A stretch of 64,000 nt of DNA from Candidatus Omnitrophota bacterium (GTDB lineage: Bacteria > Omnitrophota > Omnitrophia > Omnitrophales > Aquincolibacteriaceae): positions 2,708 to 66,707 of the forward strand of contig JAKLIQ010000006.1 in assembly GCA_022709525.1 (NCBI GenBank), in the 5' to 3' direction. Within the stretch, counting starts at the first letter, position 1. Each line of letters opens with the position of its first letter. The position numbers were made by a program, and so were the translations under genes. The notes below the pieces were generated by a model, which was not told the DNA's origin, made no database searches, and saw only the letters and a list, made by a program, of their open reading frames with translations. Below are positions 3,222 to 56,841 of this stretch, one piece after another.

Positions 3222-6200
3222 ATGGATTGTCTTAAGAATTTAAGGCGGTTTTTGGCGGGTATTGTCGCCTTCACATTCTTCGCGACGAACACTCTCACCC
3301 CAACTCCGAGCGCCTATGCGGCGAACGTAGAGTCTCCGTCCTTTGTTTCTTCTTTTAAGATCCCCGCAGAATTCGGCAAAGTCACCGATATTTTCTTAGG
3401 GACTCGGGACTCGTTCCTAGGGACTCGTAGCACAAAGAACTCAAACGAGTCCCGCGTATTAATTCATATCCAGGAAGCCCACGCCAATTATGACGCCCAG
3501 AAGAATATCCGGAATATCCTTGAGTATTTATCCCAAAATTACGGTATCAAGCTCGTCCTTTTAGAAGGCGCCGGGAACAAACTCCAGCCCGAACTTTTCA
3601 GGTTTTTCCCGCAGGACGCGGAACTTCAGCAGGCGGTGAATGACAAGCTGATGGAGATCGGCGAACTGAACGGCGCGGAAGTGTTTATGATTGAAAATAC
3701 GGGACTCGGGGCTCGACCCTTGGGACTCGATAAAACTAGGAACAAAAACGAGTCCCTAGTCCCTAGTGACGAGTCCCGCTCCGAAAGCGTTGCCGCTTTC
3801 GGTGTTGAGAATACAGCCGCCTATGTCAAAAATCTCGCTAGCTACCGGGAGGTTTTTGAAGGACGCAAGATCGCGGATGATTTTCTCGGAGCTTTCTATA
3901 CCCGATGGCAGAGATCGGCCGACCTTTCCATGAATAAATCCCTGCGCGAATTCCTGGGCCGCGAGACGGCATTCGAAGAGGATCGCGTTCCGCTCCAGGA
4001 TTGGCTGGAATCCTTGAAGAAAACGGCTTCCCGGGAGCTCGAACTGGACCTTGATAATGTTCGCGTGCAAAACGACTGGCCCGTGCTTGTCCGCTACTTT
4101 CGGCTGAAGCAGATCGCCCCGAAGATCAATGCGGCAAAAGCCCGGCAGGAAAAAGAAGTATTTTTACAGGACCTCAAAGCCCGCCGGATCCCTTCGGAAC
4201 TCCTTCAGGAGATCACAAAACTCCTCGAGCACAAAAAAGACGGGGACCTTCCTCCTTACAAAACCCGTTTTGCCTTCGAAAAACTCATGGATCTTCTGCC
4301 GACGGATTATTCGTTCGAACAATACCCCAATTTTAAGCTGCATCTCCAGCAGTTGATCCTTTTAAGCGAGCTCCAGAGCGATCAGCTTCAGGAAGAGATT
4401 GCGAAGCTCACCGAAAAACTCACAGTCCGTCTTACTCAAACTGAAAATGATAAACAACTCGTCGCGGTTTTGCATGATTACCGCCTTGTTAAAAAATTAT
4501 TTCAGCTCGAATTGAATCGTGGTGAATACCAGCAGCTTTTATCCCGCAATGTTTCACCCGCAAACATTATTAAGGGACTCGGGACTAGTTCCTCGGGACT
4601 CGGGAATCCAGGAAAAACGAGGAGCGAGTCCCGAATGACGAGGCTCGAGCTTCTCTACGGGACGGCAATCCGGTTTTACGAGGGAGCGATCGAGCGTGAG
4701 CATTGGATGATGCAAAAAGCGCTCGAGCGGATGCGGGAACGTAAACAGGCCAAGGCGGTCCTGATCACCGGCGGTTTTCACACCGACGGCTTTAGGGAAA
4801 AGATCCTCGCCGGCGGCAGTTCCTATATCGGGATCACCCCGCGCATCGGCGAGATCACCGCTGATTCTCAGAAGAATTATATTCAAACCTTGTTGGGTTT
4901 GAACGGGACTAGCGCCTCGCACCTCGGGACTCGTAAAAACGAGGAACAAAAACAAGTCCCGAGTCCCGAGTCCCGAGTCCCTGTCGCTGTAAGCGACATC
5001 GCTGCCACCCCTCGCTCTGACATCCGGCTCATGGCGGAAACGGGAGCGCTCGATCACTCCTTAAGCCGCATCGAGGCCGCCTCGATCGACATCGTTGCTT
5101 CTACTCGTCCCGAAAACCGCGAAACCTACCAAGCCCAATTAACCCAAGGCATTCAAACCATTAAAGACGAAGTTTTTAGTGGGCCAACTTCTACCGTACG
5201 CGCCGAAATGCGGAGAGCAATCAGGGTCGAGATTCCGGAACAGGTGAATAACGCCTTGAATTTGGAGCAATACCTTCGCAGTCTTTTGGGTAAAGCGGAG
5301 TACGGAACGCAAAATGTAACGCTCGAAGCGATCGCCGCGGGTGAATGGCGCATTGTCCTCGTTACCCAAAAAGGAGAAACGATCCCTACTTCCAATATGG
5401 CCCTCGCAAGTTCGATTCTTTCCGAGAAGGGCTATCATAACGGCATTCGCGATCTTCAAGCTATTGAATTCCATCCTCGCTCCGAAATGCGGGAGCGGAT
5501 CCTGCTTGTCGATGACAGCGAATCGGACCGCGCGCTCTTTCGGGTTATCCTGGAAAGCAAAAAGTATGAAGTGGTTGTTGTTGAAAGCGCCGAAGAAGCT
5601 CTCGAAGAGTACGCAAGAGCCAAAAAAGAAGGGAAGCCCTTCGCTGCCGTTGTTTCTGATTGGAATATGCCGAAAATGAAAGGCGACGAGCTGGCGCGCC
5701 GGATCACGGACGTGCCCTTTATCCTTCAAAGCTCGAACATCCTTGAGGACGGCACCGCGGAGAACCCCGCCGAACAGAAGATCCTGGATGAACTGGCCGC
5801 CTTAAACCCTTTTTTCAGGACCCATTCCAAAAACGAGCTGGGATTTTTGGCCGAGAAGCTGGCGGGACTCATTTTTGCCGCGAAACCCCCCGTTTTAAGC
5901 TTTTTGGAAATGCACAGCGCATTTACCGCGATCGCCAAAGAAGCCGCCGGCAACGATGATCTTGTCAAATTCATCAATGATAAATGGGAGCCCTTTTTGA
6001 CCACGGGCCCACTCACGAAAACAAAAGAGAAACCTTTAAAAACCGGGCAGGACTGGCAGCAATATTTCCTGAAATTGGGCCGCTTGAACCACGACCCCGA
6101 TATCGCCGCCGAAGCCTACAGACGCTTTCAGGCAATGGTGAAAAAAAATACAGGCAAGGAGTTGCCGCCCTTGCGCGAGGGGCCCCGCCAGCGTTCTGAA

Positions 6201-9200
6201 ATACGCACAACGGCAAAAAAAGCTGCTGATGCAAAACGAACCATCAAAAATATCGCGGATTATGTTCGGCCCGAACAAGGACAGAAAAAAGGGATCGGAA
6301 AGATCACGATACCTTATTACAAAGGCGGTGTCGAAATCAGCTATCGATTCGAACGTCTTAAAGAAAAAAAGAAAGAAATTATCGAAGTTTTCAAGAATTT
6401 GATAGCGGCTTTGGAACTCGAAGCTGAGGAGGAGCCGGAAATAGGCAGGCATTTTGAAGAGGGTATGAGCCATCAGGACCTCGTAGGCGTTTTCCGTTAT
6501 GACTTGGAGCAGAACCATATTTTTATGTTGCTTGCTTGGCTCAAAGCGTTGGGATTTCTGGACCTTTCCCCGACCCAGCAGGCGCTTTTGGAAAAAATGA
6601 AAGAAACTAAAAGCGCAGACAAGATCAAGCTCTACCCTAGAATCTTAAATATTGATTTAAAAGTTTTAAAACCCGAAGTTGAAAAATCGAGCGTCACAAG
6701 AGAAGCCGAAGAAGAGGATCTCGAGCCGGACGCAAACGACCTTGAAGGCGAAGACGCGGAAGCGCGCGCAGAAGTCAGGGCCTCTCAACCTGCCGGGAAA
6801 ACCGGTTTCGGCATCTTTTATCGTTTTAAACTTGCCCTGGCCATCGGGATCATCGGACTCTGGTCCGCGATCATGGCGCGGGCCCAGACCGTATTTCCCG
6901 GCAAACCTTACCTCGAGCATTACGCGGGGCTTTCCGGATCAGGGTCGATCGCGCAATATAGCAGCGCTCATTTCAAATGGAATTTCCGCATTTGGAACCC
7001 CGGCTACTCATTAGCCGTTTATAATTTTGGAACAACCGCTCAAGGCCCGCAAAATCTAAGCGGTTACACCAGTTTTAGTTGGGACGTCCGCTCCTACATT
7101 AACAACACCACAGGCCATCAGGGTGTTTTCCGGGTCGAATTCAAAGACACGGACGGCGATATCGCCAGCAAGACCGTTAGCGGCATTTATAGCAACTATC
7201 AGACCGTTACGATCACTTTGGCGGAACTTCTCGCCAGCAATCCTGCCTACAACCCTCAAAACACCAAAGAGATCGTTTGGGTCGCGGACAGCAATGCTTA
7301 TATGCCAGATGACTATGAAGGGTGGGCTGAATTTAAAACGGGCGGGCTTTTCTTCACCACGAATATTTCTCCCAACGCCTCTTATACCCTTTATGACACG
7401 ACCGAGCTTCCCGAAGGGACCGAAGGCGCGGTGGACCCTGTCACGGTCTATCCCGTCGGCGCGTCGGTGACAGCCAGCAATCAGGACCACGGGATCGCGT
7501 TCACTTATAACACGGGCGGCCAGACATGGGCCGGCGCCGGCATGGCGTTCGATGATTTCGGAACAGTACCTGTCGGCACAGGGGATTTGAGCGGTTTTTC
7601 GAACCTTGTTTTTGGCATTAAGGCCACCGGGACCACGCAGCTTAAGATGGAAATCGTGGATAGCGCCGAGAACAAGGAATATGTCTACTTAAACGGCATG
7701 AATGCCGGGTACCAGACATGGGTCATCCCGATGAGCTTTTTTGCCGGCATCGATCTTGAGAACGTCAAAGTCATTTATTTTATCGTCGAGGGCGCAGGCA
7801 AAAGCGGCACCGTCTCTATTAACCACATTCCCGAGACGATTGACATTACTGGCGTCAGACGTCAGCAAAATAATGATGTCGTCACTTTTTCAAGCATTTC
7901 AGGGCTTACCTATCGCGTGGATCAGAGCGCGGCCGGCCTTGTCAGTCCGAATTGGCAGACAGGCGCCACCACAAGAGCTCTCGGCCCCTCCGCGACGATC
8001 ACCAACAGCACCGGGTCTTCTTCTAATACCGTTGTGACACGGGTGATTTATAACCGTTCTGAGGCGAGGGAAGAAAAAACCCCGGCCTATAAGATCAAGT
8101 CGGAAGAAGTAAGCGTTTATGATCCGTCTAGTCCGAAAAGCGAGCCGTATGCCGTCGCCATGGACCTTGTTGAAGAGGTCCGGATATCCGAGACAAGAAC
8201 AGTTTATTTCAAAAAAGCCGCTTTTGAGGAGGCCTATGAAATTTATCTTAAGGGCGTGCCCAACGCTCTCGGCCTTTTGAAAGAAGGCGTCAGGACCCGA
8301 ATAGGCGATCTTCCGTTCCGTTTTATCGCCCGGGAAGGAAAACTGATCATCCTGGCGGAAAAACCCGGCATTGTTGTGATGAAGAAAATCCCGCAAACAG
8401 AAGCCGCGATAGCCAAGAAAACGCCCTTAGCCGCGAAAGCGCCGCTTCGGATCAAAAAATCCGAACTTACCAAGATCCAGGGAGAGGGAAGGAGCCGCTC
8501 CGAAGCGCGGCTTGATATCGAAAAGGAAATGTTCAAAAGTTTTTCGGAGCTTTCTTCCGACCTGCGGGTAAAGCTCAAGACCGAATGGAGCCGTTTCAGG
8601 CGTTTCGGCGGCAACTCACTTGAAAAAGCGCTGCGTGAAGACAATGAGGCGGGCGTTTTAACCCTCCTGGAATATTACTGGGAATTCGTCGGGGAGAAGA
8701 TCGTGCCTCCCGATGTCCTTTCCGGCAAGGTATCGATGGTGGCCCTGTCGCTGACCGGGGCTTGCGTTATGGGGCTCGTGGGTCTGACAGAAATACCGGT
8801 CCACGCCTTATTGATCAACCTTTCGATCTGGAGTTTTATCGCGGCAAGCGGTGTGTTCGCGGTTTCTTTGGCCGGAAGCCTTATTGGCAATCGGATGAAA
8901 CATAGCGAACTGGCCCGCGTCGATCACCTCATCAAATTAATGAGAGAGCTTATGGTCCGCCGGAACCATCTCCCCCTTTCGACTTTGGAGGAAAAAACGC
9001 TTTCGGGCGCATCTTCCGGCGCTCCCGTCGAAGCGGTTTACCGGCCGCCCCGAATGATCCAATTTTCGGAGCCGTTTGTGGAAGGCGAACGTCCCGGTAA
9101 AAGACCGCCTGAAGTGGAACCGCCTGCCCGTGCCGAACTAAGAGGTTTTGGATTCGATGTTCCGGATTGGGCCGTTGGAAGCGCTTCGAACTACCTCAAG

Positions 9201-18698: not shown

Positions 18699-18745
18699 TC
18701 CAAATACCGGGACTGGGTCTGCCTGCCGGCCAGGCAGGGACTCGT
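18699..18745 (+). terminator. GC-rich hairpin immediately after the giant 1 stop. Candidate intrinsic terminator, merged into the repeat complex.
   Basis: gggtctgcctgccggccaggcaggg (ctgcctgcc / ggccaggcag stem). Confidence 0.3.
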
Positions 18746-18882: not shown

Positions 18883-18892
18883 TCCCTCCCTT

Positions 18893-19774: not shown

Positions 19775-19780
19775 TCTAAT

Positions 19781-31310: not shown

Positions 31311-31349
31311 GCCCTCTTGCAAAAAACCGGGTCTTTATAAAGTGTTCTT

Positions 31350-32405
31350 ATGAATAAAAAACAGATCGTTATTTTAGCGATGATCCTTGGTGTTCTCGCG
31401 CTTGGAACGCTTCTCAAGTTATGGGTCCGTTTCGTGGAAGAAAGAGCGATCTCGGCTCAAAAGACCGGAACTGCGATCATGAAATTCGATCCCGCCAAGG
31501 CGGAGCGTATTTTGATAGACCGTCCCGGAAAACAGACGGAGCAGAAGGCGCAATCTTCTCCGGTAGAATTGACCAAGGAAAACAATGTCTGGAAAGTCAG
31601 AAGCCTTTGGGGTGTTGAAGCGGATCCCGCCAAAGCGGAAACCTTGATCCGGACGCTGGGCGCGCTTTCAGGCGAAGTCCGGGGAACAGGCAAGAAACTT
31701 TTTCCGGATTTCGGGATCCGGGAGGACGATGCCATCTCCATCAAGGTTTTTGACGCAGAGAACCGCCCGCTTTCGGATCTTTGGCTCGGGACAAAACAAG
31801 CCGGTAACGGTTATTTTGTCCGTAAGGCCGCCGGTGAAGAAATTTATTTTGTAGAATCCGATATGCCGGGCCTGCTGGCGATCTACACGGGCTTGGCGGA
31901 GGCGGCCCCTTTAAGCGAGAACTGGGCGGACCTCACACTGTTTAACCTTGATCCGGCCAAAGTCGTCAAGATCACGGCCTCCCAGATCAAAGGCGACGAA
32001 AAGACCCTGGTTCTTGGTTTGATCCTGGAAGCCGATCCGAACGATCCTGGTAAGAAGATCTGGAAATTCATGCGTAAGGATATGAAATTCTCTCCTGATC
32101 CCGAAAAAATCGCCGGGTTTTTCGCCGTTTTAAAGGGAATCAAAGCTCAAAAAGTTATGGATCCCGCCGGGAAAGAATATGGCGTTGAAAATCCCGTGTG
32201 GCAGCTTGCGGTAACGGCAGAAGACGGGAAAACAATCCTTAACGCGAGCGCGAAGGATGCGAAAGAAGAGCTCTGTTATGTCAAACTTTCAAACAAGGTC
32301 ACGGTTTTCGGCTTGGCGGCGCATGATTTTGACGATCTGAATGTGGATGATACGCATTTTGTAAAAGAAGCCGTTTCGAAAAACGCGGAAGGGAACCGCG
32401 CGTGA
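31350..32405 (+). CDS. DUF4340-like protein commonly found next to GldG-type ABC genes. N-terminal TM anchor.
   Basis: [25 protein letters not shown] anchor. The operon context is GldA/F/G-like. Confidence 0.45.
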
Positions 32406-35220: not shown

Positions 35221-35802
35221 TTACCCTTGTAAATTTTTTTCCACGAAATCCCAATTCACCAGATTCCAGAACGTTTCTACGTATTTCGCCCGCGCATTCC
35301 GGTAGTCGATGTAATAAGCGTGTTCCCAGACATCACAGGTCATAAGAGGCGTCTGTCCGTTCGTCAGGGGATTTCCGGCGTTTGAGATCGCTTCCACCCC
35401 GAGCGTTCCGTCACTGTCTTTGACAAGCCAGGCCCAGCCGGAGCCGAAAAGGCCTACCGCCATCGTGGTAAAAAGCGTTTTAAACTCTTCAAAACTTCCG
35501 AACGAAGCATTGATCGCTTCAAGCAGTTTTCCCGAAGGAAGGCCGCCCCCGTTCGACTTAAGACAATTCCAGCAGAACGTGTGGTTCCAAACCTGGGCTG
35601 CGTTGTTGAAAATAGGGCCTTTGGCGGTTTTGATAAGCTCTTCCAGGGTTTTTGAGGCCTCGGGCTTTCCCTCGGTAAGTTTGTTGAGGTTTGTCACGTA
35701 GGCGTTATGGTGTTTGCCGTAGTGGTATTCAAGCGTTTCCTTGCTGATATGCGGCGCCAAAGCGTCCATAGCATAGGGGAGTTCGGGAAGGGTAAAAGGC
35801 AT
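35221..35802 (-). CDS. sodA: Fe/Mn superoxide dismutase.
   Basis: HHxKHH N-terminal motif (HYGKHHNAYV) and DVWEHAYYIDY. Confidence 0.9.
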   Translation of the reverse strand: MPFTLPELPYAMDALAPHISKETLEYHYGKHHNAYVTNLNKLTEGKPEASKTLEELIKTAKGPIFNNAAQVWNHTFCWNCLKSNGGGLPSGKLLEAINASFGSFEEFKTLFTTMAVGLFGSGWAWLVKDSDGTLGVEAISNAGNPLTNGQTPLMTCDVWEHAYYIDYRNARAKYVETFWNLVNWDFVEKNLQG

Positions 35803-36060
35803 AAAAAACCTCCTTTTTCTTAGCGGTTAGCCAGGCTTTTTGGCCACCGCACTAAGGTTAAAAACAAGGCCGTTATTATATCACGCCGGACCATGCCGTA
35901 AAGTTCCAAAATCCTCACAAAATCGACCCTAAAGACTAGAATTTGATGCTATAAAAAGTTATAAATTGAGCGTCTATTTTTTAAATACATTTATAAGAAA
36001 GTTGCTAAGCAGGATATCAGGTGTTACCTTTTAGGAACATTCAACCTGTTGTCCTGTCTG
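35803..36060. promoter_or_regulatory. AT-rich promoter region of giant gene 2. Contains GTGTTACCTTT (36021-36031), shared with the giant gene 1 upstream region.
   Basis: About 35% GC. caggtgttaccttttaggaacattc here against cttgtgttacctttcccatgag at 3162-3183. Confidence 0.4.
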
Positions 36061-51000: not shown

Positions 51001-54000
51001 TTTATAAATGAAGAATATCTGGAATTTATCGGAGGCGCGCGCTATGACGAGAAAGGCGAAGAATATCACCACGGACGCTTGGCTCAGGCCTTTGAGATCG
51101 ACCTCACTCAATTTGACCATGTGCTTATTTACGGTTCTGCGGAAGGCGCCTCTCCGAAAAACCCGGAAGGAGAGATCAGTTTGACATTCTTAGAGAATCA
51201 TTACCCGCAGGAAAAGGGAAAATTCCTGGCGACGCTTCTTGCGGCAGGCGGGGTCCCGCTTTCGAAAAAAATAAATGTCCGGAACAATTCCGTTCCCGTC
51301 AAATCCATCAAAACCCTCGCTGACATGCTTTCGTTTAATGACGGCTCTTCAGCTCCGCGTTCGGAAACGCGCGCGCCGCTCAACTTGACGATTCGATACT
51401 CCCAGGATTTTTATAATGTGATCGCCCGGATGCAGGCGAATGAGCGGTACGCTTTGATGAACCGGCTATATCGATTCCTGAGAAGCGCTCAGCATACCAC
51501 AAGCACCACGGGAGTCGGCAAGCCCTTGACCGGCGGTTTGAACATGTACAAAGAGTTCCAGTGGGGGGATTACAGGATCCTGTTCATTTATAATATCCAT
51601 CGAAATTTTCCGGAAAATGATCCGGCGCGCCGCGAATTCATCCTTTTCCTCTGCTGGTACAAAAAATGGAGCATTGATAGTCAAAAACCTTTGAATGACG
51701 AAGCCCGTAACAATAAAGCCATTCAAAAAATACTGGATCCGGCTTTGCCGCAGGACGGAGAAAAGATCCAACAGCTCCTCAAGTGGTTTTATGAGGAGCG
51801 CGAAGAAAAACCAATAGCCGATCTGGAAGATTTTGATTTTTTAAATCAGGTTGCGCCTTCGCTCCTTTTTTCCCCCATTCAAAAATTAGACCTTGAAGAT
51901 CTAAGGGGGACCCTTGAAGCCAATCTCAAAGTTAAAGAAAGTTTTACGAATGCTCCCATTTTATACTTTGCCATTCACGACATGCAGGCGGCGCTGGAAA
52001 AAGAACCCGACAATTTAGAAAAAGCCGCGCATCTCTGGCTGGGCAAGAGCGGGACAGTGCCGCGGGAAGAAGCCGAGCGGGCGAAGCAGTTTTTAAGGCA
52101 ATGGACCAGCGCTGAATACCGGCTCTTGGCGTTGATCGAAAATGATTTAAAAGAAAATGAATCCGCTCAAGGTTTTCGCAAGGCGCTTGGTAACATTGCG
52201 TGGGTTTATTTCGAACTCGCGGAAAAACCTTTCAGAAAAAAGATCCAGCAGAAAATAGAAGAATGGGCGCAGCGCCGGCCCGAGACCTCCAAAGGGTTGG
52301 GGCAGATCCAAGCGGCCTATGCTCAATTAAGGAAAGGAAATGCGGGGGAAGATGTTTTTTCGAGCCCTCTCGTTGAAAAAATGATCGAAGCGCGGAAGGA
52401 ATGGCTGCGTTCGCCGCCAGTCGTAAAAAAGCCTGTGTTAAAACCGGAACCGGCCGCTGTATCGCCGGCAGAAGTTACGCCTGTTTTGGCGATTCGCAGG
52501 GAGCCGGAACCGGCTTCCGTTCCACCGTCCATCGAGCGCGAACCTTTGAAACTTCCGGACACGCCGGTTGTTAAGGAAGCGATTGGGAAAGCCAAGAAGC
52601 TTTTTGAAGATTGTAAAATCCGGCCCGATCTAATAACGGACGCCAACGCCGAAACCGCTTTGGCCGTAGCGCTGGATCCCCAATACACGTTCAAAGAAGC
52701 GGGAGCGAAGCTCGAGAAGCTTTTTGAATCTTCAATCGGCGAAAATACGGCTAAGGATCTTCGCAAAGAGCTCGAACAGCTCGGTTTTTTAGCGGCTTTG
52801 CATCAAATGAACCAAATCCGGGCCCTTAAACATTTGACACAAATGTTTAGCAAGGCAGAAGTTTCCTTCGAGTCAGGAGACGTTATTCAAGCCGAAACTC
52901 TTGTAAAGTCGGCTATCGTCGCGGATGGTTACGGCCGGCCCACTGAAGGCAAAAGCTCTCTTGATAGCTTATTGGGGAAAATAAAGGAGCTCGAAGAGTC
53001 GATCAAAGCGTTGAAGAAATGGACGGCGGTTCTGCTCGAAAATCCTGAAACCTCGGCGCCCTTATCAAAAGCGGACCTGGATAAATTGGTTGCTGAGTGG
53101 GATGGTTTTTCAAAAAAACAGCAAAAAGCCGCCGAGCATCTTTTGTCTTCCGAAACAAGCCGGGGCCGCTTGAAGGACAACCTAGCAAACTCCTTTTTTG
53201 TCGCCGCTTTTCTCCTGCCGTTTGTTAGGGAGCACAAGGCCAGTTCCGGATGGGTAGAGATTCTCATCAAGGACCCCGCCATGATAAGAGATATGAACAG
53301 AGAGCTTATAAACCGTGGGGCAAAGGTTTTGACCGAGACGCAACATGTTTTCCCCGTAAGCCCAAAAGGGTCTCTCCGTTCGGAGGTAAGAGGAAAAAAA
53401 GAAGTTACGCTCGTCATGCCAAAGGGTCCGTACGTTTTTTCTGATTTTGAAAGTCAAGAAGACCTGGCGCCGGAGGTCAGGGCTTTTGATTTAAAAGATC
53501 ACGACATGGAGTTAAGTTTTAACTTCGAAGCCTTTGATGCTCAGGGGAAAAGCCGGTTCTATTTCGATCGTATTCACAATATACTTTTTTTCAACGGCGT
53601 ACCGCTTGCTTTCTACGGTAAAGAACGGGACGAGAATTCTCCTCTCGAAGAGATCTATCAAACGCCGGACGAATTGGCGGCAGGCCATTCGCCAAGCAAA
53701 GTCGATGCCATCCTTCCGAGCGGCAATTTGGGGCAAAATGATTGGTTCGTTGCTATTGTGGACGACAAGGTTTACCACTATTCGAAGGACCCGCTTGACC
53801 GAGTTTACGACATGCTTCTTGTCAAAGAAGACGGTACGCTTGAGGTCCGCAGCCTTCGATTTAAAGATCAGAAAGGAATGCGCGGGATTTATGATAAAAA
53901 CTATCGTTCGATCCCTTTCAAGATCCGTTACGGGTTTTACGGGCAGCGCCTCGTTAAAGACAGGAAGCTCAATCTTGCGGGGGTCGCCACACAGTTCGAT

Positions 54001-56841
54001 GATCTCAGGCATCTTTTCCGTTTTCCTAGATTCAAATTTTCGGACGACCGAGAAGTCCATCTTGGATTCAGCGACGACGAGGGCGAACTTTACCGGGACC
54101 CTCATAAGATCGAGAAAGCTTTGCGCGGCGAAACCATCGGCCTTTCCTTAAGGCCCCTCCTCGATATGGGGGTTTCTGTCGACCAGGTCGAAGCTATTTT
54201 TGAGGCGTGGGGTTATATTCGATTGGTAATGCCGGTACCGCTCGCGGAATTCAAACCGGGCGAATATTTCATCAACGAAGAGAAGAACATAATCTGGGTG
54301 AAATTACTTCCCGGCATTCATCCGCACAATTTCTTCGGTTTGGACCAAAACGGAAAATTCCTTACCGGCGCTGTCCCGGGCGACACGCATTTTGAAGGGG
54401 CAACCCTCGAAACCCTCGGGAATCATTTGATCGAAAGATATCGGGCCAGGGATATCTTTATTTGGGGGAACGGTAAGGATTCGGTTCTAAGTCTTCCTCG
54501 GGAAAAGGAGGTTTTTGGCGCGAAACATAAGCGCGAAAAATTCTTAAGCGCCATTTTAGTGGTTCCCAAACAATTCCGTTCCGAAACGCGGGAGTCTGAA
54601 ATCCGCGGAAAAGAAGAACAAGCGGTTCTTGATCGCATCGAAGCTTATCTGGCCGCCATGAAAATAGGGGATGAGCTCGAGCTTGACATCATGAAGGCGC
54701 AGTGGATGGATGAGCTCGGGAGGGCGGGAAGCAGGATGATGTGGAGCGATCTTTACGGGATCCTTTCAGTACAGCTTTTTCCAAAATACGGCATTGTCTA
54801 TGAGCCCCACAAGACCGGCGGGTATTTCAAACGTTTTCCAACCAAAGGGCCGGCTCAAGAAAATATTCGCACGCCTGAACTTGCTCCGGCGGAAGAGTTA
54901 AAAATGCAGGCAGAAGCGGAAATGAACCGAGAAGAGCTTCAAGTGCCGGAGGATCTTAAGGATAAGATTTTTATCCATGACAGTCACCGGTTTGCCTATT
55001 ATCAGATCAAAAAAGCCGTGGAAACCCAGAAGATTCCTAGCGGACTGCCGCTTCTTTTGCTGGACCAGCATAGCGACAATAAAGGCATTATGCTGGAAAA
55101 TGTTGCCGAATGGCATGGCATCACATGGAAAATCCCCGCCGAAATGGACCGCGCTTCCGGACAGAACATCCTCGATTCCGGCAACTGGATCAATTATCTT
55201 CAAAAAGACAAATTGGTTGGGCCGGTTTTCTGGGCTTATCCCTATGGTCGTGAAATTTTTATGGGCGAAGGGCAGCAAGCCTTTGAAGCCCAGGGAGCCA
55301 CTCTGCGCAAGATCTTGAAAGATCATCCGGGATCTTTTCAAGACGGCGTAATCCTTTCCCTGGACCTGGATTATTTTGCTTCTCAAGCGAATGACAAAGG
55401 GGAAAAAGGTTACCGGCCGCCCAAGGGCGAGATCAAACAAAAAATGGAAAATATTTTTAATTTGCTCAGAACGTATGGCGTCAAGATCCGTTTGCTCAAT
55501 GCTGCTTATTCTCTGACGCCGTTTTCTTACGCGCCCTCCGACTATAAACCGGAATTTCAGGAAGCCCTCCGGGAAACCATCCGGGCCAATACCGAACTTT
55601 TTGTTCGCTCGGAAGCGCGGAAAAAAGAAAGTTCACAGGAATATACAGAACAGGTTGAAAAGGTTCTTGATCTGCTGGGTGGCATGAAAGCGAGTAAAGG
55701 CCGGGAGAGGCAAAAAGCCTTTGAAAAAATACAGCAATGGCAGAATTGGGTCGCTCCGGAAGATCAATATGCCGCTGATCGTTTTAAACGAAAAGATGAA
55801 AGGGTGTATGCCCCGCTGGAGATCATCACGGGACATTTGAAGAATCCAAGATTCTATCCCGAATTCGAGCAAGAAATTGTTGAATTCTTGTTTTGGGTCC
55901 ATGCGGACGATCAGCCGCTCTTTGAAAAGACCGTCGAAGTTTTATTTGAAGACGCTGCTTTTCAACGTCAAAGTCCTGATGAAGGAAAGCGCAAACAAGG
56001 CGAGGCGAGCACGGGTCTTCTCCGCGAATTATTGATGCAAGCGAGCAGCCGGGATAATAAAACCTTTTTGCGTTATCTGGAAAAAATGTTCCGTGGCCTC
56101 GGGAAAAACCGTTCTACGGCCGAAAAATTCATCGGGGAACTGATGGTCACCCATAAAAATGACGCCATGGGCAGAGGATTGCGCGACGCCTTGGATAAGG
56201 TTTGGCCCTCAAGAGCCGAAATAAGGGTTTCGATGGATGCGGCGGAGGGGACGTTCCGGCAAAGCAAAGTTTCAAAAATGACGCGCTCGGAGTTAAGAGA
56301 TTTATTGGAACAGGTGATGCCAAACGCTTACCCTGAAAAAACCATACAAGCCACCCGTTTTGCCAAAGCGAGGGAAATGCTTGGCGTCAAAACCGTGGAG
56401 ACCCAAGACGCTCTTATCCTTACCAAGGAATTCGCGTTCGATCGTAAAGCCCTGCTGGCGGTTCAAAAAGTTTTCAGCGGTACGGAGATCGTTGTCTTAG
56501 CCGATGAAGACCAGCTTAGTCAAGCTGACCGTGATTTTCTTGACCAACTTCCTCAAGCCAACCGGCCTTATTTGGTCTCTGCTGCCCTTTTGAATCATCC
56601 GAAAGTCTTTTCGGATGCGCTGAGAAAACTCCTGGGCCGTACAGCCGTCGGCCGCTCCGTTCATTTTAAGGCTATGGCCGGAGCGAACGATCCTGCGGCG
56701 GAGCTTTTGAAATCCCAGTTTGACGATGATGCGATCCTTTTGACCGAGCGGACATTCGAAAACTTCCTCAACATCGCCGGCGTTAGCGCTCTTGTAAATG
56801 CCATGACGGTCCAATACAAAGCCACGGCGAAGTCGGCGTAA
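36061..56841 (+). CDS. Giant multidomain protein 2 (about 6,920 aa; the ORF is open from TTG 36049; an alternative ATG is at 36115). Order: signal, TraB/Tiki-like domain, unknown module, 4-TM cluster, methyltransferase-like, GNAT, Hef/RIG-I-like SF2 helicase, 2 TM, HPr-like, TM plus a second TraB/Tiki-like domain, GNAT-like, RelE/ParE-like, arginase-fold, shared C-terminal domain.
   Basis: Single uninterrupted 20.8-kb ORF. The signal-like MPDHNKTTFSLPVRAIAMFVLFAFTSTTIAWSAP segment. Domain motifs are listed separately. Confidence 0.85.
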   Translation: MLRKDGKSKVKGLSAVSKMPDHNKTTFSLPVRAIAMFVLFAFTSTTIAWSAPSVGTEVKELSREIKINQLAERITVPSEIGIIKEIHTASPASALSPQFSGLIVHLEDAHGSVEAQLHQEAILRHLRKEYGLDTIFVEGGLGDLRPELLSFLEDEKRNSELINKLTEKGLVGGVERFLATKSPDQRLQTADHSLKTKDFKAIAPVSSLKSSVRAFGVESAELYRRELELFREVYAHKAESDQFLNGIRRQLLAQSASGFNKELKAFFKEWLFQEEVQKDILSHLSFLQKYAVETLNLDLTDAREQYDWPQLVRFFKLKNLEGLVPRDSELARDEMQKLAQWLNDQKLDDLNKELELFFNEPRGASFESRGETFRTRMEKFYAKVSPRGFRFEDYPALTKRIGSIILSQEIQTGELLQEMERLNAKILEALAKTQEEKRGIAQYQEYLLLKKLFSLELTREEFKQMGLAPRDSLLEKTRGQAESRIPSSEPPAREVYSRALEFYEIAQQREEAIFKNMLAKMKSIKQPNAVLITGGFHSEGLSEFLKAKGVSYVRIAPRISGKMDDANYLRIMTLGQCAPAARSSARFATLTNDPKSLDAATVEFIRAELRTSIREIADDVIPSNEWIISKDLLGRQSEAMVPRDSGLGTGFKNESLGTSDKSRAEGRSEAREEEKDPSALEKEFERLFPSNKELMLALFGEIVLQNKNIEKFFYQLMAIYGLASWDGEHYQSTTKRPLSPEQALYFVSLLRLEGGGFLGDEYEFIYKTKKGKRTVEKTVAYTDLDPEYLEWAVKYKIPIEYFPLTYSLFIDKKEGLPQTGTTKIAIRAGNQLGEELFREFIEKRGPRVREPLVNAKGVDPKNLRWLKIHPDSHLSKIADSHGIDPKDLKLGFEKEGDQHSVYLFTANETFNAEASRRFDASHVASIPIGFVSIRYDGNTPFIYGYQPRFFIPSHGKEDANDVVGRTIKGGMLFLEAFLEKEISKIVSAKKPVKKLHFPTPSWHLVNSKVAGTTAFRYYYEFPKEQGFQLVLATPESKAFNMGKSWQPHWLLEKHIEKNRSEMRGSSISVKWSEKIAKLKQTPDYRLLAYLLKNTGLSEIEKNRYITLWLMMAISAPLTGSLKFVFAAGAASLAAVSPWFVMAPPLVVLLLSPLFRLVFFVGPFWAASGFKMKLDWLIPANFVPGLGAFIAVPAQILKSLKGEYRQYQNMSVRKLRQLVYQLDGILSEHRMNLPQEDLDAIRSRLPMMAFKVLEFQAAHPGFSLKKNGKENPEAILHLESVDLLPVRLESLIREKTPTIFLGSGQESFNTLRQRIPPDRLPGLDFYQFDLSQEPGIEKDSIQPLAARSEARHKGLFSNVTPLDKIVEKHKQWNLHKVVDVLDRKAREIKTFFWWELLEQWRTDGGSFYFTSEEKNFSESLRRASDDQFKEQVERLLRTSFAKRDLILSSKKDYPTFDELINSFETGFLSFYSNLFGVLADEAVSGRLPAAEKNWKVLMPELIRRWNENDSARSEMRNDIEKNIEKILEQADVRIRSGDEVESEPGVYAATPPVYLTAIEKVLQIDPRKELILIEAGHAQGLLALRLAMKHPNLRIIGIEGRPSLYEDSKKILEAAIELRFLRPEQVHFYEGDLNDEEFSKDYEAADIVYYYNYGADDETKFALTLADHLKYGARVVVFDGFLDGGEADHFSQALRETEVFEGTIVQGVRSIPVFKKTLDTQDVSLEGNRSEVRNEAATSRALPGASKRFAYAEEVARVVGLLGELRQLDNTRVLAQTENGVGEENWSRWIQHHMAGKLHVFFGYWNSFNESGDIEDLETAEKGLQEAENIFESRKSFKEALQNDFDHFHLNPPLEKVRSGKPLFPLELVHYFLHKVFVENPNAQKNREVYARVIQDLEEAFYEMREAFERVKTEKYFKTAEELEKNPPANVSSQKASSEVLRHFRVYDGMDGKLYADPRVWYRENFSGFDHFAAIGPGEIVFLTLDEGATGAVASLGHHECLSLAIRARAGNKNVIGLAHVFYDIMAGNSQDSYVKYLKILDHLHAQKEWSDIQIILTENNVFHGFPKGMNLDVLKREAADRGIQVSSAEVWKFGTDAWVDIIATPQEVFLRKREGTAPFRYEPKDWGAPIRTDPGDPRTVSFMPSTLVSEDGEEFEVSYEDGSVDGQRTIKLLYDGQPVATVDFRIDPKQNAAILDYNNDGPKRYVGIEVNQFFSERYSGIGTALMGLAFRVARDEGIPEFYVLHSKADGFYEKLGMIKIRDGVFRFPLEDSEREKQRLSFPPLRIRSNPRSELRKKKEEDPNQLKLFEASETKELDPENALMRQLGYAWEQMKQAIQSPEELEKALYEKIPAVKKAVEFLGFQVVEENRKLFVTDPVFKRKIQFRAYQVLLAAHAARGDAMVILPTGLGKTIVAVLVVGYLLKQAPQKKILITANSNLLVEQHADTFDQYFESDIIAKIGESDNEEGRRSLWRRARIVIATNDLVVADPGVFLIDDIGYLIVDEAHRVGAAPDDRYAGTRLVQAYREKNPDGKLLGLTASPRPKKELKGWQQNLRLSDTDFFAASEEDSWIYPYVIKRNAEIARAERDAKFPLLFMILRFLEDVFKVVRTTDIRADFEDARQKVLNAWLEENDEKIQKVFDGFLQDTARQAAASSQRVLMQEQYGPVLELIRKVRTELVPQMFDLKASKAVRIAEWAALFEKPVFSDPKFLELSVAVRTSFETELFRKAAQDLETLIDRQKYRIYELWQQNLQKSLLNVKGDMSRLSHEKIERLWEKTSEEFRDNPDDFGVAYKAAVEAKNWKEKDRLDVLVTLNQLWHLRGDWIKYGPEKFTGTIQTKDLEAKASWKKRTRPALERTSVLDAASWFQKSREIFPKEKILLDLLRPVQGKPHDRTAIFVDDKKMARRLVELIKKEFPDLRVAMLVGRGMGGSDEGMTPREQERVRDDFNKGKLDILVGTDVMAEGLNLQGLRRVIEYTPARRAIEKIQRQGRVSRFEEGWVLSLVTPWDRSIYFGTQQRVEATRRLIRDLQKRNPYTEFRSETRISLRTERNEVPVRAEMRASVAEEIEERVSSMYDKGDLEVGYWWFDFEEYDARRKDPDYPTLPTDRISKIREAMEEFRDLRTDKNQMIYARNIHWILGVPSVGIMLIHLLLLAQGDGEVYWKTSFGLLGAVALLNYFFSRVVDYTTNEHPYEKILDILESIDRQGPDESQGPSVRSEARDRVSQLAQNFVIQNPNGIHLRPAAGIVKIAQQIFAALGITVWLQKSGQGERVPAQSETKVALLGLRQGDSVTVILDSREGESYPRRFFEKIMKLWKKLFNDPEALKAGLSGEKGLPYFSAITSLVPEKDASRRSEIRTKHPPQKRVMKFRDVAYYYNNFDKAAEIFKKILKASEKGVINAGDRIWRETLPAIKSYYDAYNKRGEIPEDFRVMAMLVRAIMIFQMLMGKKTSIPQTSKPAKRSAVSENHFKDRYRFWSDAALFNKIAEVLKALKNPDMAAKIRDPKLGLPQFDTPQMTRLNELAAMDRFVHPEKLELEDIFTRFDRRHAAARGETSFRSETREPLLLDGNVKLTAIREKLSDISELHLDRDIRKAVAMQIRRVILAKQDRLGWEDLQKIEGLEDLNLSVLKENFKLPVKTPVRSLKYSRRFAWGLAGLLAASALSIAGWFKWESSRARQSLTATFQKAGDVKSEIYQDLEKVYFEKMPLYNVFPAALYKDPLYFPNQEWGNYHLTVIGDIHTHPDTPALILDAARLIAEDPQQWVLLVEGYEEWKKNRNENAVDLVLLDELIKRTKAPVLDFVPLPSDADVLEGIQERLEFSKEEILNISCFLKLGFYFTVADDSGRPQEWALEKTLNLMSSRTGLPKEYFLNQLTALAQSLKDLDDVGLKKVWEKIVRFQLIEIEARNTVGQKRVREFLSKYPNRKNIFVITGSLHLPIFDIRLPPEHQPMTLPYDFFTESLSRYYSVLELNASSFRSEIRGDTKDSALAWSHKRTKELLAAMSPAVQDTISKFLKEKILRHRNNRLMEWSRSLKNQSHAAKIKNDIEQWSGGIESPKGKKNEEIIALIEPWLDGDYFWFDEIAWNPIQVTEYMLQVFLSHTSPAFSNWAEEKAAQFNMTREEFLTRLLTDIRLIELLVIVFMQSNLHSTFPGMPVTILTLKDEVLASATHTGDTIANGQNPLETIPEKKKEPWLEVLKRSFQKPQPVSKKEPEKVAWYRRVIAVSEEKIRGLVDAKAREKGTEEFLDSFIPELIHFVKHSRDFKASEHELVSMKKELDRYVGLKNLFSFIPRSDPPARQDGSPTKNSTDPSGPVADVLLSRAEMRISAAELVKRERQLDQWALMAEELKKIKRLQDTSEKAFRRQRESIAEQVMNYAMSDEVFMDRLITADFEAAAGMLTSFPYLKKEDQPILKVMLEIVFPPEAATRHLKASWLQVICCGVSGLGLFLKNILRPKKTFQNGTQGSKSESPAVFTDTTSSAGRRSEMRAEEKNLPQTEGKLFNNLSLDTLAETLAPVVLDMRDRRENVYVEGKNKRREVIGVVRFQPGLQIALAPRFAGRSFYNSHDEFAQKAGFTETVDEKGYARLWLTFNEEKELIRIGLSPDADKIISSDEKRKQLAALALMTAKILRSLEDHDLDFKLGGFALEIGGRTSLLGDHERNAVWGQSQSSIEMLDRLSTLGTTEPGVQEMRSELRETTGDIVLRQKGRDMWETERKPDKMVFHFETLEMQKLPKGSQRSRAYEFRTVFKTLFPALAYEAYKGERSFALNPDRINVLLLSEGKPAGFYSYSKLPYQRNQLLGFGVIQDYRGTGAEDVLWEDIKARVFYNNPKARIIVPDIALLNSRAAPGRFEGTAEDLKSALGIEGAAPKEESSAGQGVRADETIAQEHAFEAYTKRIFTPEFLKKYETKLAEMRDAIGLTLRSYGHQLVNRQEMAKEIVDFLEQSAATTETRLSLAKLPQGVTQEGSKRATFFFFINEEYLEFIGGARYDEKGEEYHHGRLAQAFEIDLTQFDHVLIYGSAEGASPKNPEGEISLTFLENHYPQEKGKFLATLLAAGGVPLSKKINVRNNSVPVKSIKTLADMLSFNDGSSAPRSETRAPLNLTIRYSQDFYNVIARMQANERYALMNRLYRFLRSAQHTTSTTGVGKPLTGGLNMYKEFQWGDYRILFIYNIHRNFPENDPARREFILFLCWYKKWSIDSQKPLNDEARNNKAIQKILDPALPQDGEKIQQLLKWFYEEREEKPIADLEDFDFLNQVAPSLLFSPIQKLDLEDLRGTLEANLKVKESFTNAPILYFAIHDMQAALEKEPDNLEKAAHLWLGKSGTVPREEAERAKQFLRQWTSAEYRLLALIENDLKENESAQGFRKALGNIAWVYFELAEKPFRKKIQQKIEEWAQRRPETSKGLGQIQAAYAQLRKGNAGEDVFSSPLVEKMIEARKEWLRSPPVVKKPVLKPEPAAVSPAEVTPVLAIRREPEPASVPPSIEREPLKLPDTPVVKEAIGKAKKLFEDCKIRPDLITDANAETALAVALDPQYTFKEAGAKLEKLFESSIGENTAKDLRKELEQLGFLAALHQMNQIRALKHLTQMFSKAEVSFESGDVIQAETLVKSAIVADGYGRPTEGKSSLDSLLGKIKELEESIKALKKWTAVLLENPETSAPLSKADLDKLVAEWDGFSKKQQKAAEHLLSSETSRGRLKDNLANSFFVAAFLLPFVREHKASSGWVEILIKDPAMIRDMNRELINRGAKVLTETQHVFPVSPKGSLRSEVRGKKEVTLVMPKGPYVFSDFESQEDLAPEVRAFDLKDHDMELSFNFEAFDAQGKSRFYFDRIHNILFFNGVPLAFYGKERDENSPLEEIYQTPDELAAGHSPSKVDAILPSGNLGQNDWFVAIVDDKVYHYSKDPLDRVYDMLLVKEDGTLEVRSLRFKDQKGMRGIYDKNYRSIPFKIRYGFYGQRLVKDRKLNLAGVATQFDDLRHLFRFPRFKFSDDREVHLGFSDDEGELYRDPHKIEKALRGETIGLSLRPLLDMGVSVDQVEAIFEAWGYIRLVMPVPLAEFKPGEYFINEEKNIIWVKLLPGIHPHNFFGLDQNGKFLTGAVPGDTHFEGATLETLGNHLIERYRARDIFIWGNGKDSVLSLPREKEVFGAKHKREKFLSAILVVPKQFRSETRESEIRGKEEQAVLDRIEAYLAAMKIGDELELDIMKAQWMDELGRAGSRMMWSDLYGILSVQLFPKYGIVYEPHKTGGYFKRFPTKGPAQENIRTPELAPAEELKMQAEAEMNREELQVPEDLKDKIFIHDSHRFAYYQIKKAVETQKIPSGLPLLLLDQHSDNKGIMLENVAEWHGITWKIPAEMDRASGQNILDSGNWINYLQKDKLVGPVFWAYPYGREIFMGEGQQAFEAQGATLRKILKDHPGSFQDGVILSLDLDYFASQANDKGEKGYRPPKGEIKQKMENIFNLLRTYGVKIRLLNAAYSLTPFSYAPSDYKPEFQEALRETIRANTELFVRSEARKKESSQEYTEQVEKVLDLLGGMKASKGRERQKAFEKIQQWQNWVAPEDQYAADRFKRKDERVYAPLEIITGHLKNPRFYPEFEQEIVEFLFWVHADDQPLFEKTVEVLFEDAAFQRQSPDEGKRKQGEASTGLLRELLMQASSRDNKTFLRYLEKMFRGLGKNRSTAEKFIGELMVTHKNDAMGRGLRDALDKVWPSRAEIRVSMDAAEGTFRQSKVSKMTRSELRDLLEQVMPNAYPEKTIQATRFAKAREMLGVKTVETQDALILTKEFAFDRKALLAVQKVFSGTEIVVLADEDQLSQADRDFLDQLPQANRPYLVSAALLNHPKVFSDALRKLLGRTAVGRSVHFKAMAGANDPAAELLKSQFDDDAILLTERTFENFLNIAGVSALVNAMTVQYKATAKSA
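37020..37050. repeat. Solo left arm (GGGACTCG x2) in frame in giant 2, encoding EGLVPRDSE.
   Basis: gagggactcgttcctagggactcgg. Confidence 0.75.
37133..37170. repeat. Solo right arm (CGAGYYYC variants) in frame in giant 2, encoding EPRGASFESRGE. It lies about 85 bp from the left arm, the same spacing as in mqnD.
   Basis: gagccccgaggagcgagcttcgagtcccgcggcg. Confidence 0.65.
37452..37520. repeat. In-frame GGGACTCG-family element in giant 2, encoding GLAPRDSLLEKTRGQAESRIPSSEPP.
   Basis: tgggactcgctcctcgcgactcgctcctcgaaaaaacaaggggccaagccgagtcccgaatccctagttccgagcccc. Confidence 0.8.
37978..38050. repeat. In-frame GGGACTCG element (3 tandem octamers) in giant 2, encoding MVPRDSGLGTGFKNESLGTSDKSRAE.
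   Basis: ggttcctcgggactcgggactcgggactggttttaaaaacgagtccctaggcacaagcgacaagtcccgcg. Confidence 0.8.
39380..39640 (+). other. Cluster of about 4 predicted TM helices in giant 2.
   Basis: ITLWLMMAISAPLTGSLKFVFAAGAASLAAVSPWFVMAPPLVVLLLSPLFRLVFFVGPFWAASGF...FVPGLGAFIAVPAQIL. Confidence 0.5.
40765..41110 (+). other. Rossmann-fold, class I methyltransferase-like module (weak).
   Basis: ELILIEAGHAQGLLALRLAMKHPNLRIIGIEG...FYEGDLND...ADIVYYYNYG...GARVVVFDGF resembles motif I-IV spacing of SAM MTases. The glycine motif is degenerate. Confidence 0.3.
42560..42860 (+). other. GNAT-family N-acetyltransferase-like module.
   Basis: VGIEVNQFFSERYSGIGTALMGLAFRVARDEGIPEFYVLHSKADGFYEKLGM (motif A R-x-x-G-x-G and motif B). 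Confidence 0.5.
43200..45100 (+). other. Superfamily-2 helicase of the Hef/FANCM/RIG-I-like type, with a roughly 330-aa insertion between RecA-like domains.
   Basis: Motif I MVILPTGLGKT (43264-43296), motif II VDEAH (43568-43582), motif III GLTASPRP (43671-43694), motif V VGTDVMAEGLNL, motif VI QRQGRVSR (45024-45047). Confidence 0.8.
45750..46000 (+). other. HPr-like phosphocarrier domain (PTS HPr fold), flanked by TM helices and RSE[AI]R motifs.
   Basis: FVIQNPNGIHLRPAAGIVKIAQQIF (compare HPr [23 protein letters not shown], with the His15 equivalent present), ...ETKVALLGLRQGDSVTVILDSREGES. Confidence 0.5.
47240..47900 (+). other. Second, internal TraB/GumN/Tiki-like domain in giant 2, preceded by a TM helix. 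It carries the canonical G-x-x-H first motif.
   Basis: YHLTVIGDIHTHPDTP (47262-47309), VLLVEGYEEW, NIFVITGSLHLPIF (47850-47891). Confidence 0.5.
50300..50560 (+). other. Second GNAT-like module.
   Basis: NVLLLSEGKPAGFYSY...LLGFGVIQDYRGTGAEDVLWEDIKARVFYNNPKARIIV. Confidence 0.35.
51500..51680 (+). other. RelE/ParE-like toxin-fold module (weak).
   Basis: LTGGLNMYKEFQWGDYRILFIYNIHRNF...EFILFLCWYKKW resembles the ...R-[IL]-[IL]-[FY]...H-R-x-x-[FY] arrangement of RelE/ParE. Confidence 0.25.
54950..55560 (+). other. Arginase/deacetylase-fold (UPF0489-like) module (weak).
   Basis: KIFIHDSHRF...LLLLDQHSDN...VILSLDLDYFAS resemble the D-x-H-x-D and S-x-D-x-D metal-binding motifs of the arginase/HDAC fold. 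Confidence 0.3.
56300..56838 (+). other. C-terminal domain shared with giant 1.
   Basis: See 18000-18695. ...RSVHFKAMAGAN...FENFLNIAGVSALVNAMTVQYKATAKSA*. Confidence 0.6.

Follow-up and report, generated by a model that had tools for sequence, protein, structure and literature searches.

Giant genes with constant ends and motif-delimited modules in an Omnitrophota bacterium: candidate exported polyproteins

The architecture of two giant genes from an Omnitrophota bacterium suggests that they may encode exported precursors of many separate proteins. The genes lie in a 64,000-nucleotide stretch of Candidatus Omnitrophota DNA (GenBank assembly GCA_022709525.1, contig JAKLIQ010000006.1, positions 2,708 to 66,707), and this whole stretch is called the window below. 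Both genes, Giant 1 (G1) and Giant 2 (G2), encode a signal peptide, an N-terminal domain (N-domain), a series of gene-sized modules each closed by a short motif, and a basic-small-small tail (-[KR]SA or -xAA). Throughout the family to which they belong, the motif that closes each module has the form R-[S/A/P/T]-E-x-R. The sequences are consistent with G1 and G2 being Sec-exported polyproteins that are processed at this motif, and we put the chances of this at about even.

Results

The two giants resemble each other only at their ends. G1 lies on the plus strand at 3222..18698 and encodes ~5,158 amino acids (aa) from the ATG at 3222; its frame is already open from a TTG at 3153 (3153..18698, plus strand, 5,181 aa). 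G2 is also on the plus strand, at 36115..56841 (~6,908 aa from the ATG at 36115), in a frame that is open from a TTG at 36049 (36049..56841, plus strand, 6,930 aa). The ATG at 36115 fits the N-termini of homologs, and gene callers start at 36061 (6,926 aa). A BLASTP comparison of G1 with G2 gives two common regions only, one N-terminal (G1 aa 32-629 and G2 aa 36-622, 29% identity, E 3.7e-57) and one C-terminal (G1 aa 5014-5181 and G2 aa 6762-6930, 35% identity, E 3.5e-18). The original prediction of two giants with common terminal domains is borne out by this comparison, with shared regions of ~600 aa and ~180 aa. It had also described the giants as mostly not made of repeats, and self-comparison found no internal repeats in either protein.

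The interior of each giant is divided by a strict pentapeptide. RSE[AMVLIT]R occurs ten times in G1 (plus strand, 15 nucleotides each, span 5478..17960), starting at 5478, 6192, 8055, 8496, 9537, 10113, 13866, 17022, 17487, and 17946. It occurs 18 times in G2 (plus strand, 15 nucleotides each, span 38059..56298), starting at 38059, 39235, 40096, 40591, 41242, 42931, 45181, 45715, 46126, 46738, 47998, 49522, 50146, 51358, 53377, 54577, 55606, and 56284. Residue shuffles give an expectation of 0.04 for G1 and 0.06 for G2, with a maximum of 2, and the motif is absent in frame from the other open reading frames (ORFs) of the window. In 78 related giants the motif was found 366 times in total, and these family ORFs have 1.75 motifs per 1,000 aa, compared to 0.059 in 639 flanking ORFs.

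The motifs lie at the edges of recognized domains and never within one. A motif is found 2 residues ahead of the first beta strand of the response-regulator receiver (REC) domain and another 9 residues ahead of the HPr core, and motifs flank both NDK and HPr on both sides. One lies between a GNAT domain and a helicase, and others stand directly ahead of the UDP-glucose 6-dehydrogenase (UGDH) and of the shared C-terminal domain (C-domain). The motif is likewise found at domain edges in four related loci (L006, L012, L016, and L063). G1 is divided into 11 pieces and G2 into 19, with sizes of 132 to 1,246 aa. The 906 interior modules counted in the family as a whole are 232 aa long at the median (interquartile range 117-463 aa). 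The motif takes the place of normal protein termini, and the modules are gene-sized.

The conservation of the motif is at the level of the peptide. The codons vary from site to site (CGC, CGT, CGA, CGG, AGA, and AGG for Arg; TCC, TCG, TCT, and AGC for Ser), and the DNA flanking the motifs is unrelated between sites, so that the constraint is on the peptide rather than the nucleotide sequence. The codon variation also led us to reject a repeated DNA element at the junctions.

The second residue of the motif changes from genome to genome. RPExR is found in CAYQTU and in both paralogues of CAZGID. Both paralogues of DAOPYQ have RAExR even though they fall in different N-domain clades, and their nearest N-domain relatives, which are 50-59% identical and come from other genomes, have RSExR. 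The motif variant follows the genome and not the lineage of the N-domain, the pattern expected if the motifs of one genome have a reader in common. One family member, P0064, is rich in RTExR. Other repeated peptides were seen in two loci: L054 (MHFO01000043) has LSDSR repeated 11 times, and L060 (JAKQXH010000055) has no clear motif and a few repeats of (G)ASLG. These may be alternative delimiters.

The N-termini of the giants predict export by the Sec pathway, with the bulk of the protein outside. The signal-peptide-like segment of G1 (3222..3320, plus strand; MDCLKNLRRFLAGIVAFTFFATNTLTPTPSAYA followed by ANV) was read from the sequence and a hydropathy scan, and it is conserved in homologs. 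In G1, G2, and the neighbouring protein n alike, a positively charged start leads into a hydrophobic core and then an A-x-A-like site, as judged by eye and hydropathy.

The N-domain belongs by its fold to a superfamily that includes peptidases. In G1 it occupies 3339..4901 (plus strand, ~560 aa) and has the fold of the TIKI/TraB/EreA/ChaN superfamily, which also includes RRSP, with a parallel beta-sheet core flanked by helices like that of solved members. The original prediction of a TraB/Tiki-like domain is thus supported by fold, and none of the curated sequence models (TraB, Erythro_esteras, Cofac_haem_bdg) matches at Pfam E <= 1 or NCBIfam E <= 0.01. In 221 aligned family members H87, E115, G194-x-E196, R492, and T-G-G-F-H520 (numbered from the ATG) are invariant or nearly so, and H87, E115, and H520 are each present in 219-221 of the 221. 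The spacing of 28 residues between H87 and E115 is that of His85-Glu113 in Bcr135 and His3902-Glu3930 in RRSP, and RRSP and Tiki are site-specific endopeptidases (PMC6254334). Judged from the predicted fold and these residues, the N-domain looks like an active enzyme. It differs from the superfamily in lacking any match to its Pfam or NCBIfam models, in a helical insertion of ~300 aa that splits the core, and in the variability of the first Glu of the 2His/2Glu set. The sequence RSESR occurs at 4620-4634 (G1 aa 490), inside a variable, low-confidence loop of the N-domain; its fourth residue does not fit the motif, which has a hydrophobic residue or Thr there, and it was left uncounted.

A stand-alone relative of the N-domain is encoded next to G1. 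This protein, n, has 703 aa and is encoded at 855..2966 on the minus strand, divergently from G1. The original prediction took it for a stand-alone copy of the N-domain; its match is significant but weak (E 6e-8 with G1 and 3e-12 with G2), and the conserved motifs and blocks are kept. Protein n has a signal peptide and a TIKI-like domain, lacks RSExR, and ends in ...PEKAA (..EKAA at 858-869). When the flanking ORFs are clustered, at least 21 loci of the G1 clade prove to have an n-like gene, in the same divergent position that n has beside G1 and 200-500 bp upstream of the giant. The encoded proteins are 705-790 aa long; they have a signal peptide and a TIKI-like domain but lack the motif, and they terminate in K-[SA]-[AV]. 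Loci with an n-like gene upstream include L006, L008, L009, L011-L014, L017-L019, L022, L024, L025, L027, L029, L050, and L070, and the genes that come after the n-like gene are often the same ones, for SRPBCC, Xth-like nuclease, esterase, and ACT-domain proteins.

The giants belong to a large family that is confined to Omnitrophota among matches with informative titles. An N-domain profile was built from 6 sequences and used to search GTDB genomes, and 78 loci were kept. At least 379 N-domain relatives are present in GTDB genomes, and one metagenome-assembled genome (MAG) often has several paralogues. All of the 78 loci with informative titles are from Candidatus Omnitrophota or Omnitrophica MAGs, and P0161 and P0162 are Omnitrophica at NCBI. 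Word-indexed homolog searches gave few matches (10, 4, and 4). An exhaustive HMMER search gave 8,329 clusters at 50% identity, 2,865 of them at E <= 1e-30. The N-domain is always at about residues 1-600 in the 8,329 clusters, and the longest protein among the matches listed has 7,823 aa. The ORFs that continue after the N-domain in these 78 loci are usually longer than 3,800 aa and have 4-17 motifs.

The C-terminus is a second constant feature. The last module of G1 (17961..18695, plus strand, ending in ...FARSA) and that of G2 (56299..56838, plus strand, ending in ...TAKSA) contain the C-domain that was identified by BLASTP of one giant against the other. A hidden Markov model of the C-domain has matches in 40 family proteins, in every case at the very C-terminal end. 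Its structural model (pLDDT 82) is a generic Rossmann-like alpha/beta fold with no specific neighbour, and it has no match in Pfam (E <= 1) or NCBIfam. This Rossmann-like domain precedes the tail in the clade of G1 and G2, and members without a detectable C-domain usually keep the -SA or -AA ending. Such endings are found in 100 of 144 family representatives and in 2.3% of flanking ORFs. The tails are basic-small-small (-RSA, -KSA, -ASA, -xAA), with ..ARSA at 18684-18695 in G1 and ..AKSA at 56827-56838 in G2. They resemble the nonpolar tails that are recognized by tail-specific (Prc/Ctp) proteases or by ClpX. The residues just before the motif are unlike -SA or -AA, and the hypothesis of a tail that imitates cleavage products was abandoned for this reason.

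Both giant ORFs are real and uninterrupted. The identical 6,926-aa product of G2 is called in three assemblies (ERZ761563 NODE_245, 81 kb; JGI 3300010429, a contig of 550,887 bp; and ERZ27257456 k141_778693). For G1, the 5' 7 kb with the first 2,416 aa are identical in a second assembly (ERZ27257456 k141_22306). JGI 3300009776 and 3300025706 are further samples in which this genome is present. BLASTN against the other assemblies gives 100% identity over 10-15 kb. It could be argued that the giants are assembly chimeras or gene-calling artefacts, as all of the assemblies compared are short-read metagenomes. However, the frames are open over 15.5 kb and 20.8 kb, hundreds of homologous giants are built in the same way, and the sequence recurs in other assemblies, one of them with a 551-kb contig. 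Chimeras and frameshifts are therefore very unlikely, and we consider an artefact extremely improbable. The contiguity on which the original prediction depended is thus supported.

The assigned modules of G1 include a receiver domain and two enzymes of nucleotide and sugar-nucleotide metabolism. Module 1 (5493..6191, plus strand) is a REC domain (PF00072, E 9.4e-10) in which the acidic pocket is present (LLVDDSE, SDWNMP). Module 7 (13881..17021, plus strand) is a UGDH with the Cys motif GFGGSCFPKD; PF03721, PF00984, and PF03720 match with 81, 142, and 107 bits (E 1e-21 to 4e-41), and the best solved match is PDB 3vtf (1e-49). Module 8 (17037..17486, plus strand) is an NDK (Pfam E 1.3e-15, 57.9 bits against a gathering score of 27), and its NKIHASD corresponds to the canonical active-site motif NxxHGSD. 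These three assignments had been made in the original prediction, the latter two with the quoted motifs, and the Pfam and PDB searches agree with them. The G1 UGDH has an insertion of ~175 aa at ~14420-14950, between the NAD-binding and central domains, relative to L012 and L016. About 450 unannotated residues follow it at 15660-17021 with no delimiter, showing that one module can hold more than one domain. In module 4, the segment at ~8724-8891 (G1 aa 1858-1913) is strongly hydrophobic and could be a transmembrane (TM) hairpin.

The assignment of module 6 of G1 to glycosyltransferase family 35 (GT35) is weak. This module (10128..13865, plus strand, 1,246 aa) is distantly alpha-glucan-phosphorylase-like and was originally called a GT35 glycogen phosphorylase with EASATSMMK as its PLP site. 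The motif is present, and a five-sequence profile aligns it to the pyridoxal-phosphate (PLP)-lysine motif EASGTSNMK of PDB 4bqe (E 1e-3). The score against the GT35 Pfam model is 27.8 bits, barely above the gathering score of 27, and the score against TIGR02094 is 33 bits with a cut-off of 191.7. Full-length similarity to GT35 was not found; ~100 of the 1,246 residues align, around the PLP-lysine motif. Six of the nine cargo modules of G1 have no match in Pfam (E <= 1) or NCBIfam.

The cargo of G2 is different and includes three clear assignments. Module 6 (42946..45180, plus strand) is a superfamily 2 helicase of the Hef/FANCM/RIG-I type, with GLGKT, DEAH, and QRQGR motifs, matches to the Pfam DEAD, ResIII, and Helicase_C models, and similarity to solved members (Hef 1wp9, 2.6e-37; FANCM 9el5, 8e-19). 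Module 8 (45730..46125, plus strand) is HPr-like, with GIHLRPAA and a PTS-HPr match of E 6.6e-11 (42.6 bits against a gathering score of 23). Both had been proposed originally and are upheld by these matches and motifs. Of the two GNAT modules proposed, module 5 (41257..42930, plus strand) has an acetyltransferase domain in its C-terminal part (PF00583, E 4.6e-6), and the match of module 13 (50161..51357, plus strand) to the same model is weak (E 0.0045). The proposed methyltransferase (MTase), module 4 (40606..41241, plus strand), is class-I-like and matches five MTase Pfam families weakly (E 0.02-0.2). The proposed arginase fold comes down to a weak match of module 16 (54592..55605, plus strand) to UPF0489 (PF12640, E 0.0033, 18.3 bits against a cut-off of 27) that covers 38 residues; we take UPF0489 to be a member of the arginase/deacetylase clan. 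The RelE-like fold found no counterpart, as no module of G2 matches RelE/ParE in Pfam at E <= 1 or in the PDB.

The rest of the G2 cargo is without assignment. Ten of its 17 cargo modules have no match in Pfam (E <= 1) or NCBIfam, a phmmer search of the PDB with G2 aa 3401-6930 gave no match, and homologs of the G2 cargo are absent from the first ~3,800 aa of the 78 related loci. Strongly hydrophobic segments are found in module 2 (~39427-39558, aa 1127-1170) and module 7 (~45469-45537, aa 3141-3163). Together with the segment in G1, two of the three resemble TM hairpins and one a single TM helix. Cutting of the precursor would turn the modules that carry these segments into small membrane proteins.

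Relatives with both constant ends carry other modules, which supports the original view of a family with constant ends and variable cargo. MTase and aldose epimerase are found in L006, phosphorylase-like and UGDH modules in L012, REC and UGDH in L016, phosphorylase-like and MraZ-like modules in L027, and UDP-glucose pyrophosphorylase in L063. The phosphorylase-like module is present in 12 relatives at differing positions; it is bounded by motifs in at least five contexts, and the edges that can be checked are close to motifs. A near-minimal member, P0160, consists of the N-domain, a motif, the phosphorylase-like module, a motif, and the tail. In six loci (L032, L036, L042, L044, L067, and L069, from the locus start to ~9.5 kb) a second motif-bearing giant ends just upstream on the same strand, so that some genomes have tandem arrays of giants. 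The separate N-domain and cargo ORFs of L074/L043 were not used, since the L074 MAG has ~1.7x coverage and its ORFs overlap out of frame, so that a frameshift is likely.

Base composition also changes from module to module. The GC content at third codon positions (GC3) is 0.39 in the UGDH module of G1, compared to 0.61 and 0.65 in the neighbouring modules, and it is 0.43, 0.65, and 0.43 in modules 1, 2, and 3 of G2. Housekeeping genes have values of 0.57-0.66. The steps in GC3 fall close to RSExR positions. The GC3 mosaic suggests that modules were gained cassette by cassette, from differing sources or at differing times, and composition together with module positions supports the view that modules behave as exchangeable cassettes. 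The low-GC3 modules (0.39-0.46) are at 13881-17021 in G1 and at 38074-39234, 40111-41241, and 46753-47997 in G2 (modules 1, 3, 4, and 10), and their neighbours and the housekeeping genes range from 0.55 to 0.66.

The giants are surrounded by ordinary chromosomal genes. Those between and around them encode an MqnA-like protein, an M24 peptidase, transketolase, GGT, an ABC system, ThyA, DHFR, SOD, a radical-SAM protein, and a lipid A acyltransferase. Between the giants, at 28054-32405, are genes for an ABC ATPase, a fused ABC-2 permease with ABC_transp_aux/DUF7088, and a DUF4340 protein, a trio that is presumably a GldA/F/G-like transporter set. Upstream of G2 is a gene of the 23S rRNA intervening-sequence protein family (PF05635, 33713-34063), and an Fe/Mn superoxide dismutase gene (35221-35802) adjoins G2 and is divergent from it. 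Scans for promoters and terminators ahead of the two giants did no better than shuffles.

Discussion

The junctions of the giants are most economically read as processing sites. The modules are gene-sized, the motif stands where protein termini would be, and it is selected as a peptide. In addition the motif changes in concert within each genome, a TIKI-superfamily domain is always attached, and a paralogue of this domain is encoded next door. If this reading is correct, the precursor would be exported once by means of its single signal peptide, and a site-specific protease of the same genome would then cut it at the pentapeptides. G1 would give ~11 separate proteins and G2 ~19, including enzymes, small membrane proteins, and many products with no assigned function, and these would act outside the cytoplasm or inside a host or prey cell. 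There are two candidates for this protease, the N-domain with its TIKI-like fold, which would work in cis, and its stand-alone paralogue n, which would work in trans. Tentatively, the whole may be a secreted-polyprotein system that has so far gone unrecognized, in which modules are exchanged as cassettes, a TIKI-superfamily protease cuts at R-[S/A/P]-E-x-R, enzymes of cytoplasmic type are among the products delivered to host or prey, and the motif and its reader co-evolve genome by genome.

Several points weigh against processing and its proposed agents. The motif may stay uncut and serve for docking or as a linker, and some members do not have R-x-E-x-R (L054 and L060). The signal peptide was assigned solely by eye and hydropathy. 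The first Glu of the 2His/2Glu set, residue 85 in the N-domain, can be E, D, T, S, or N, and the TIKI superfamily also holds esterases and haem binders, so the fold alone is no proof of a peptidase. The concordance of motifs within a genome fits a single trans-acting factor better than many N-domains acting in cis. Finally, UGDH, NDK, and the helicase depend on NAD or ATP and are ill-suited to the periplasm, except on the assumption of delivery into another cell. Such delivery would fit the predatory or parasitic lifestyle that has been proposed for the phylum (PMC10066038).

The same architecture could be explained by giants that stay intact. Each could be an exported or membrane-tethered multi-enzyme scaffold in which RSExR serves as a linker or as a docking site for a chaperone, an export factor, or a surface anchor. 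Published surveys treat the giants of Omnitrophota as intact surface or membrane proteins, there are possible TM hairpins in module 4 of G1 and modules 2 and 7 of G2, and a conserved C-terminal domain and tail are sensible for a single polypeptide. However, a structural linker does not need four invariant residues at more than 900 junctions between unrelated modules, and it would not switch its second residue together across the paralogues of one genome. The gene-sized modules with the motif at the place of normal termini also argue against a scaffold, which we regard as the main rival and as somewhat unlikely. A different reading, in which G1 is a cytoplasmic-type metabolon that converts glucan to glucose-1-phosphate and on to UDP-sugar with regeneration of nucleoside triphosphates (NTP), seems improbable. 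It draws on the phosphorylase-like module, UGDH, and NDK of G1, on relatives that carry UGDH, UDP-glucose pyrophosphorylase, and aldose epimerase, and on the sugar-metabolism Pfam community reported for Omnitrophota giants. The coherent pathway originally proposed for G1 survives to the extent that sugar-nucleotide enzymes are a recurring theme of the relatives. However, the UDP-glucose pyrophosphorylase that would link its steps is missing from G1, six of the nine cargo modules are without assignment, and the phosphorylase call rests on ~100 residues. In addition the signal peptide with its preceding positive charges predicts export, and the G2 cargo of helicase, HPr, and GNAT has no pathway logic.

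The motif might also have no function as a peptide. RSExR could be the translated footprint of a DNA-level cassette junction such as a recombination site, and the GC3 mosaic and the shifting positions of shared modules do point to cassette exchange at these places. However, the codons of the motif are not conserved (TCN or AGC for Ser, CGN or AGR for Arg), the flanking DNA is unrelated, and the motif is kept across family members that are only ~30% identical. This explanation is very improbable in our view.

Giant proteins in Omnitrophota are known in outline, and G1 and G2 are shorter relatives of this phenomenon. Giant ORFs are well documented in the phylum (West-Roberts et al. 2023, preprint, 10.1101/2023.11.21.568195; Seymour et al. 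2023, PMC10066038), and a predatory or parasitic lifestyle has been proposed in the latter study. A "multi-enzyme metabolic cluster" class has been described that includes REC, GNAT, MTase, and sugar enzymes and mostly has signal peptides or TM helices (Nielsen & Lui 2026, preprint, 10.64898/2026.06.07.730766). G1 and G2 come from the same phylum and likewise combine an N-terminal signal peptide with many domains of free-standing enzyme types (REC, GNAT, MTase, sugar-nucleotide enzymes); their sequences are made up of a large number of different Pfam families, with no dominant repeat. The surveys considered proteins of at least 10,000 aa or ORFs longer than 20 kb, whereas G1 and G2 are shorter (~5,158 and 6,908 aa) and the family reaches 7,823 aa among the matches listed. 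West-Roberts et al. speculate that C39 or S8 peptidase domains cut the giants (10.1101/2023.11.21.568195); neither domain was found in G1 or G2. The texts of Nielsen & Lui, West-Roberts et al., and Seymour et al. do not mention a TIKI/TraB domain, a shared C-domain or tail, a junction motif, a linker, a polyprotein, or cleavage at a defined site. Four features appear not to have been described before: the motif at the junctions, the tail at the C-terminus, the TIKI-like N-domain together with the partner gene, and the module-wise mosaic of GC3.

Two known systems resemble the giants in part. MARTX toxins are also large exported proteins with conserved ends and a variable array of effectors, and an internal protease cuts the linkers between their domains. 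One of their effectors, RRSP, has the TIKI fold that is seen in the N-domain. However, MARTX toxins have RTX/glycine-rich repeats, a C80 cysteine protease, and a type I secretion system (T1SS) context, none of which was found in G1 or G2 by Pfam searches. They are cleaved at Leu-X sites, in contrast to the strict pentapeptide, apparent N-terminal Sec signal, and housekeeping-like cargo of the giants. In the absence of RTX repeats and a C80 domain, G1 and G2 are not MARTX toxins. Viral polyproteins have junction motifs that are specific for their proteases, such as the sites of potyvirus NIa and picornavirus 3C. They too have gene-sized modules in one ORF, a short junction motif that covaries with lineage, and a protease in the same polypeptide, for which the giants have a candidate. 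Their proteases are chymotrypsin- or papain-like, whereas the giants form a cellular, chromosomal, multi-paralogue family with a TIKI-superfamily candidate, and cleavage is inferred.

Giant ORFs are a hallmark of Omnitrophota with roles that published surveys regard as poorly understood, and the motif provides a directly testable hypothesis for them. It predicts the new termini that processing would create, splits domain-poor proteins into gene-sized units that can be modelled, and names two candidate processing enzymes. If cleavage is confirmed, the giants would be, to our knowledge, an unusually large family of cellular polyproteins. They would also give ultra-small, host-dependent bacteria a way to export whole sets of enzymes by means of one signal peptide.

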